Shown one piece after another: positions 58,672 through 59,248 of a stretch of DNA of 64,000 bases (the stretch's first letter is position 1; every line of letters starts with the position of its first letter). Position numbers and translations under genes: made by a program. The stretch lies in the NCBI RefSeq assembly GCF_056746865.1, contig NZ_CM163382.1; one strand, written 5' to 3'. Under the pieces are notes generated by a model. It made no database searches. It was not told where the DNA came from and was given only the letters and a program-made list of their open reading frames with translations.

Positions 58672-59248
58672 TCAGCGGATGACAGACAGCTCAAACATCG
58701 CCATATCCGTGGTTCCGGCTGGAATTGGATACCAACCCGCATTCCGGAGCAGGGCAGCGAGGGCAGACACATCGCCGGTCAGGGGATGCAGCAACCTCCC
58801 CTGATAATCAAATGCCGCCTCAAGACGTGAGCGGGAAAGATAAAAGCTGCCGGCATCCCCGTTCGGAACCACGACATTACGCCCCTCCCATTTCCGGTCG
58901 CTCAGTATCCGCCAGCACCAGCCCTGCTCCCTGATGGTTTCCAGGGCGAATGTCAGGCGGAACAGGTCAGTCTGTACCGACACATCACCAGAGCAGGCCT
59001 GCCACAGATACTCCAGCCTGCTGCGGATATCTTTCGCCCCGCTTTCACTCTGCAGGGCTCTGATATGTGCGGGGAAAACGGTGCTGTTTCAGTGCTGTGC
59101 TCCGCCAGCGGTTTAGAAACAGGTTTTCCTGGATTTTTGACGCAATCCGGCCATCCCGGCGGGCCAGATGCAGGGCTACCAGCCCGCACCAGGCCAGATG
59201 TGCGGCTTTCCCTGATACCAGCTGCCCGCTGGCGATATTGTCACTCAT
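58672..59248 (-). pseudogene. Possible decayed gene (three overlapping short ORFs in different frames)
   Basis: ORFs 59045-59248, 58953-59189 and 58672-58983 on the same strand, different frames, no recognisable family. Confidence 0.25.

Follow-up and report, generated by a model that had tools for sequence, protein, structure and literature searches.

The genes for a PTS EIIA protein and a PfkB fructokinase in a mobile raf cluster are separated by a segment (58672-59248) that raises a simple question: does it hold a gene, several small genes, or the remains of one? The segment lies in the window, by which we mean the whole 64,000-nucleotide stretch of DNA that was analyzed, and the cluster around it is ordered rafR-rafA-rafB-rafD-EIIA-DUF2913-fructokinase-LamB-type porin. 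A sequence-only reading had described three overlapping open reading frames (ORFs) in three frames on the operon strand, and had taken them for either a decayed gene or an unannotated small-protein region within a conserved sugar operon. The description itself is accurate: the three minus-strand ORFs overlap pairwise, their starts at 59248, 59189, and 58983 equal 1, 2, and 0 modulo 3, and their outer limits are exactly 58672-59248 (Table 1).

Table 1. Coordinates of the segment, its component reading frames, and the flanking genes in the window
Feature	Position	Strand	Details
N-terminal ORF	59045-59248	(-)	67 aa, ATG start
Middle ORF	58953-59189	(-)	78 aa, GTG start
C-terminal ORF	58672-58983	(-)	103 aa, GTG start; own frame open from 59069
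Probable DUF2913 pseudogene, 5′ part, original frame	59070..59248	(-)	ATG 59248; codons 1-59 plus two bases of the 60th
Out-of-frame tail of the 67-aa ORF	59045..59069	(-)	..TYQSPAE, then TGA at 59045-59047
Probable DUF2913 pseudogene, 3′ part, +1 frame	58672..59069	(-)	ortholog codons 65-199 and stop TGA 58672-58674
Remaining 7-nt direct repeat CTGACCG	58776..58782	(-)	from alignment with intact orthologs
rafA, GH36 alpha-galactosidase	from 62592 onwards, cut by window end	co-oriented	
rafB, LacY-type permease	61260-62552	co-oriented	
rafD, GH32 invertase	59833-61263	co-oriented	
PTS EIIA (crr-like), upstream neighbor	59254-59784	(-)	PTS_EIIA_1 E=1.9e-42; NCBIfam crr equivalog 235.7 bits vs cut-off 212
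PfkB fructokinase (scrK/cscK-like), downstream neighbor	57716-58642	(-)	NCBIfam NF006957 477 bits vs cut-off 450
LamB-type porin (LamB/ScrY-type)	56120-57616	co-oriented	

Two Frames Joined Match a Single DUF2913 Protein

The 67-aa ORF alone aligned with positions 9-53 of the DUF2913 profile (Pfam PF11140) at 21.1 bits, below the 23-bit gathering cut-off, and no Pfam match was found for the 78-aa middle ORF or the 103-aa C-terminal ORF. Joining the frame 0 translation to that of frame +1 raised the DUF2913 score to 33.4 bits (cut-off 23), with positions 9-155 of the 207-position profile covered, such that the gathering cut-off was passed by the joined translation and by neither fragment as encoded. 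The joined translation also matched phrog_15786, a family without assigned function, with E=2.6e-45 over residues 13-177, crossing the frame change, and it could be aligned end to end with 29 family members with all family-invariant residues kept. Because the joined matches to DUF2913 and phrog_15786 run across the frame change, the pairing of frames 0 and +1 is not due to chance.

In the three-frame translation, frame 0 reads MSDNIASGQ...ALKQHRFPRTYQSPAE and then stops, and frame +1 is open from just upstream of the frame 0 stop to ...MFELSVIR and its own stop codon. By alignment, the counterpart of the 5′ part in the intact ortholog described below is codons 1-60, and bases 59045..59069, which supply the out-of-frame tail of the 67-aa ORF, read in the +1 frame as the DUF2913 continuation HIRALQSE; the 103-aa GTG-start ORF is the distal portion of the +1-frame 3′ part. 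Codon-position composition was judged against the pattern of the neighboring genes, in which G+C is lowest at the second position (GC2). By this measure the 5′ part is coding-type in frame 0 only (GC1/2/3 = 0.64/0.47/0.64) and the 3′ part in frame +1 only (0.61/0.49/0.66). The segment contains no uninterrupted ORF of ~200 aa, being split over two frames by the TGA at 59045-59047, and it therefore represents a disabled DUF2913 copy, not a functional member of the family.

The middle ORF shows a non-coding pattern, with GC2 the highest of the three positions (GC1/GC2/GC3 = 0.56/0.67/0.53), and off-frame coding-strand ORFs of at least 60 aa are present inside five of six neighboring genes. Judged on composition and context, it is a chance (shadow) ORF of 58% G+C DNA and no gene. 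Of the three ORFs previously taken together as gene remnants, the outer two can be retained as such and the middle one cannot. We would give only the faintest of chances to the middle ORF, or another short frame, being a new small protein, or to the segment being a regulatory RNA: a 78-aa GTG-start ORF does lie on the operon strand, but it lacks a family match, its GC2 exceeds both GC1 and GC3, and comparable off-frame ORFs are common in the neighboring genes, while Rfam returned for the segment a single sub-threshold, chance-level match (chrB-b, E=0.93, 20.6 bits vs gathering 36.5). A search of the segment for promoter-like sites found none. The region is also not unannotated, as had been thought, since RefSeq already names both remnants "DUF2913 family protein" (WP_001313182.1 and WP_001313183.1) and does not flag them as a pseudogene; the family identity of the fragments is thus already known from these labels.

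An Intact Ortholog Occupies the Same Position in a Sister Element

A first protein search returned DUF2913 members of ~200 aa that were at most 51% identical, plus fragments. An intact ortholog, P0240 (WP_101701266.1; 199 aa; Citrobacter sp. L55), sits in the 90% cluster of the 67-aa fragment and surfaced through a look-up of the cluster members. It scores 53.6 bits against Pfam DUF2913. The protein collection lists it for 11 contigs; 16 contigs with it were read. In all six loci fetched, the EIIA gene is followed by a 5-nt gap, the DUF2913 gene, and the PfkB fructokinase gene, in the order rafR-rafA-rafB-rafD-EIIA-DUF2913-kinase-LamB porin-IS256-family transposase. One of these loci (L021) is 97.9% identical to the window at the DNA level over 12.2 kb, downstream IS elements and group II intron included, and we therefore regard the two as sister copies of one mobile region. 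Comparison with intact orthologous clusters, which the sequence-only reading had proposed as a check, has thus uncovered a related element with an intact DUF2913 ortholog in the corresponding place, as befits a pseudogene. The sister element follows the window collinearly between 64000 and 51853, below which the two diverge; past its IS block, at 14400-17589 of sister loci L021 and L022, are scrR-, scrB-, and scrA-like genes (LacI, GH32, and PTS EIIBC). Their presence suggests that an scr regulon has been disrupted and that the kinase and porin genes are its scrK/scrY end.

Alignment of the DNA with the six intact loci (L020-L025) showed that the window copy lacks 11 nt, TGAAGTCGCAC, at the junction 59070|59069, a frameshifting deletion in which codons 60-64 (R-E-V-A-P) are largely lost. 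Another 12 nt are missing, in frame, between two CTGACCG copies, which removes four codons (LTAR, ortholog codons 160-163); this gap is visible also against the alignment of the whole DUF2913 family. With gaps included, the window protein is 88% identical to P0240, from which it further differs by 15 amino-acid substitutions. Both deletions are shared with the copy on a Salmonella IncFII plasmid, at 98.6% identity to the window; the two copies show only eight differences, too few for inference of selection. Family members have the consensus RFPR[DE]VAP here and the intact allele matches it, indicating that the deletions are the derived state; the window copy thus carries a disabling lesion that is derived relative to its family.

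Several other readings and candidate alleles were considered and rejected. A T4C4 run at 59071-59078, where dropping one base restores the frame, had pointed to a 1-nt insertion, which is ruled out by the 11-nt deletion relative to the intact ortholog. P0001, which reads through the site (..HRFPAHIR..), is a single European Nucleotide Archive (ENA) sequence that requires two further homopolymer indels and one substitution, and is most likely the product of an error-prone assembly instead of an intact allele. P0038, at 79% identity a candidate diverged ortholog, is the same DNA read through with multiple frame shifts. Hundreds of independent complete genomes rule out sequencing error as the source of the frameshift.

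Taken together, the segment is very probably a pseudogene of one DUF2913-family gene, located between the EIIA and fructokinase genes of the mobile raf cluster, and the earlier suggestion of a decayed gene is borne out: a DUF2913 gene has been disabled by an 11-nt frameshifting deletion and has an intact ortholog in the orthologous cluster. We propose that the 11-nt deletion arose in the lineage now carried by E. coli and Salmonella and shifted the reading frame by +1, such that translation from the original ATG would stop after 67 codons. Ribosomes starting at 59248 would terminate at 59045-59047, leaving the remaining 134 codons open in the next frame, and the second deletion, between the 7-nt direct repeats, cost four more codons. 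The remnants are predicted from their sequence to make no functional protein, and the segment would now be only transcribed spacer between the EIIA and kinase genes.

The Shift Site Is Better Explained as a Deletion Scar than as a Recoding Signal

The frame changes exactly at a CCC-C quadruplet, and the +1-shifted product (junction ..KQHRFPAHIRALQ..) aligns with the whole family, raising the alternative that a +1 slip at this run (UUU CCC CGC, 59070-59078), through programmed recoding or leaky suppression, yields a full-length DUF2913 protein of 191 aa. CCC-C sites are subject to tRNA-Pro slippage and are prone to low-level +1 shifting. We nevertheless consider this very improbable. In the intact ortholog, one ORF runs through the site with 11 additional nucleotides, which makes the site in the window the scar of a deletion and no conserved recoding signal. 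The upstream sequence ACUGAAACAGCACCGUUUUCCCCGC contains no Shine-Dalgarno-like stimulator, and the A-site codon is CGC, which is no stop codon; nor is CGC a rare codon. Folding of 121 nt around the frame-change site gave no unusual structure (z=0.28), no Rfam family in the segment reached its threshold, and the shifted product would still be eight residues short. Of the features expected of a programmed +1 frameshift, neither conservation of the shift site in the only diverged orthologs (L020-L025) nor stimulatory elements were found.

Selective Constraint on the DUF2913 Copy and Its Neighbors

Constraint was assessed by Nei-Gojobori comparison of the window with the intact lineage. DUF2913 has accumulated 15 nonsynonymous and 10 synonymous differences (dN/dS 0.48), compared with 41 and 85 in six flanking genes pooled (per-gene dN/dS 0.06-0.29), a difference in ratio that is significant (15:10 vs 41:85; Fisher p=0.013) in a comparison that mixes intact and disabled lineages and involves small counts. 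Taken alone, the DUF2913 ratio was statistically compatible with neutrality and with weak constraint alike (binomial p=0.10). The window departs from the ortholog at R49, Q70, K123, V129, and F139, five sites conserved in the family; the ortholog has the consensus residue at each, so these changes look derived in the window. The numbers hint that constraint on the DUF2913 copy may be relaxed relative to its neighbors, which is supportive of the pseudogene reading. Setting the two deletions aside, neither half has acquired a stop codon, and the decay is therefore shallow.

The Disabled Allele Is Fixed among raf-Carrying E. coli and Is Eroding Further

The segment was detected in about 245 of 5,426 complete E. 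coli genomes, all copies being at least 99% identical to the window. A probe of the shift site matched the window allele in 245 of 245 matching E. coli records, and none of the 245 fell in the identity band expected of the intact allele; the deleted allele is fixed in all sampled complete E. coli genomes that carry raf. All nine of the plasmids in PLSDB (a plasmid sequence database) that contain the segment have the deleted allele and are annotated with two DUF2913 fragments, and the exact 67-aa fragment is present on at least 1000 contigs in a large protein collection.

This spread bears on whether the locus might be a split gene, in which DUF2913 function is kept by a 67-aa N-terminal and a 103-118-aa C-terminal polypeptide, both being produced and acting jointly or singly. 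The allele is unchanged on at least 1000 contigs, RefSeq annotates both fragments as proteins, both halves are still open reading frames, and translational coupling is possible because the N-terminal ORF starts 5 nt past the EIIA stop codon. Wide occurrence is, however, explained by hitchhiking on an element that has spread recently and whose copies are all at least 99% identical, and the lesion takes out four family-conserved codons. No convincing C-terminal start is present, the GTG at 58983 having only GGTG 2 nt upstream, and gene callers disagree on where the C-terminal fragment begins (P0002, P0251, and P0250). With the raised dN/dS and the loss of parts of the locus in several lineages, a functional split gene seems to us quite unlikely, and we retain the pseudogene reading.

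Further rearrangements of the remnant were observed. In ~20 complete E. coli genomes the cluster ends at window position ~59058, inside the remnant and beside an IS3-family element, and the rest of the remnant, the kinase gene, and the porin gene are absent, as in strain M505 (NZ_AP023219.2, L011, 5793-5848). Internal deletion has produced fusions of EIIA residues 1-62 to the C-terminal 58 aa of DUF2913 (P0083 and P0264, on 32+12 E. coli contigs). In a 147-aa E. coli variant (P0262), deletion between 8-nt repeats, CCGCACAT, appears to have rejoined the two frames in phase.

The EIIA-DUF2913 Block Is Variable among raf Clusters

The flanks of the segment are those of a sugar operon. Apart from near-identical copies, the closest relatives of the cluster EIIA are Crr proteins that are ~60% identical to it, and a GGAG motif precedes the kinase ATG (GGAGTATGA, then ATG). 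RefSeq names for the kinase ORF vary by genome among 'aminoimidazole riboside kinase', 'PfkB family carbohydrate kinase', and 'cscK fructokinase'. A perfect 9-10 bp GC-rich hairpin with a weak T tail, ACTGCCGTCGGTGACGGCAGT, was seen at 59803-59823 on both strands, 10 nt past the rafD stop codon and ahead of the EIIA gene; a role as partial terminator or in RNA stability, setting rafABD apart from the downstream genes, is conceivable. An IS3-family transposase farther downstream has its frameshift element, an ALIL pseudoknot, at 54639-54755 (-) (Rfam RF01497, 111.7 bits), and the IS3 copy in related genomes is interrupted by a group II intron (ltrA), according to the annotation of locus L001.

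The raf clusters of Klebsiella michiganensis and Citrobacter braakii, which are 66-74% identical to the window at the DNA level, share rafA, rafB, rafD, and the EIIA gene; homology stops inside the EIIA gene, and tblastn found no trace of DUF2913 in either. The rafD-EIIA adjacency is kept in both (C. braakii, L014; K. michiganensis, L015), suggesting that a cluster-specific EIIA downstream of the invertase is a recurrent raf feature; gene order otherwise differs, and these distant clusters encode a Porin_8-family porin instead of the LamB-type. In the Escherichia albertii IncI/K plasmid pEA8_2 (L019), rafD (77% identity) is followed after ~40 nt by the kinase gene (72% identity). Comparison of L019 5258-7959 with window 61526-59829 and 58688-57731 shows that homology breaks at 59829 and resumes at 58688, and the placement of rafD directly before the kinase indicates that lineages differ by an indel of the 1.14-kb EIIA-DUF2913 block. 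The stretch homologous to the leader of the pEA8_2 kinase gene already includes the final ~17 nt of the window DUF2913 ORF. A search of plasmid DNA for related clusters at 65-90% identity returned kinase matches only. The description of the segment as lying within a conserved sugar operon does not extend to DUF2913, which raf clusters at 66-77% DNA identity lack; across the clusters compared, the DUF2913 gene is not a conserved component of raf operons in general.

The DUF2913 Family Is Characteristic of Plasmid Backbones

By tblastn, the DUF2913 family is encoded in 3,249 PLSDB plasmids, of which 2,061 are from Klebsiella. Other DUF2913 genes (45-49% identical) are found in the plasmid backbone 1-3 kb downstream of an IncFII-type repA, and overlap with a ProQ/FinO-family gene is frequent. 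In two such loci (L003, 5439-6597; L005, 5795-6609) the intact DUF2913 gene overlaps the 3′ end of an upstream ProQ/FinO-family gene or a 68-aa ORF. An AlphaFold model of moderate quality (pLDDT 73.9) predicts a helical N-terminal portion and, after it, a C-terminal portion of mixed alpha/beta structure. No relative among solved structures emerged when PDB sequences were searched with a DUF2913 profile, and PADLOC and NCBIfam returned nothing for the family. A literature search turned up only two papers that name DUF2913, one of which lists it in a gene table only, and no paper citing the protein accessions of the fragments was found.

Discussion

The DUF2913 gene was probably plasmid-backbone DNA originally and would now stand between a raf module (rafRABD-EIIA) and a scrK/scrY-type module. 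It looks dispensable, being absent from related raf clusters and deleted through in other E. coli lineages. As an outcome, a frameshifted hitchhiking gene on a mobile element is routine and the pseudogene an ordinary one. It does call for a correction of annotation, as WP_001313182.1 and WP_001313183.1, on at least 1000 contigs, should be regarded as halves of one pseudogene. The raf element exists in two sister forms, with DUF2913 intact or broken, a natural pair that could be used to ask what DUF2913 does. We consider it unlikely, while allowing it a small chance, that DUF2913 was a working accessory of the hybrid raf/scr cluster, for example a partner or modulator of the coupled EIIA, and that its inactivation was adaptive or its fragments are partly active, as opposed to neutral decay. 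Were this so, the locus would offer the first functional handle on a family of thousands of Klebsiella and Salmonella plasmids.

The segment resembles prfB (RF2) in that two consecutive frames encode one family and the frame changes at a slippery-looking run; it differs from prfB in that its ortholog has no frameshift and in having neither an upstream Shine-Dalgarno-like stimulator nor a poor A-site codon. Its closer likeness is to the plasmid DUF2913 proteins of ~200 aa, with which the joined window translation aligns over the full length at 30-48% identity with the invariant residues kept. Typical DUF2913 members are intact single ORFs in Enterobacterales plasmid backbones, whereas the window copy is frameshifted and lies inside a sugar-utilization cluster. 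As for the cluster, the pRSD2-type E. coli raf gene lists, in the form quoted in parts of PMC12987596 and PMC4809568, include no EIIA, DUF2913, or kinase gene. The pRSD2-type operon described in those parts has the same rafR-rafA-rafB-rafD order and strand as here and a downstream porin gene, and the two have in common a LacI-type repressor, a GH36 alpha-galactosidase, a LacY-type permease, and a GH32 invertase.
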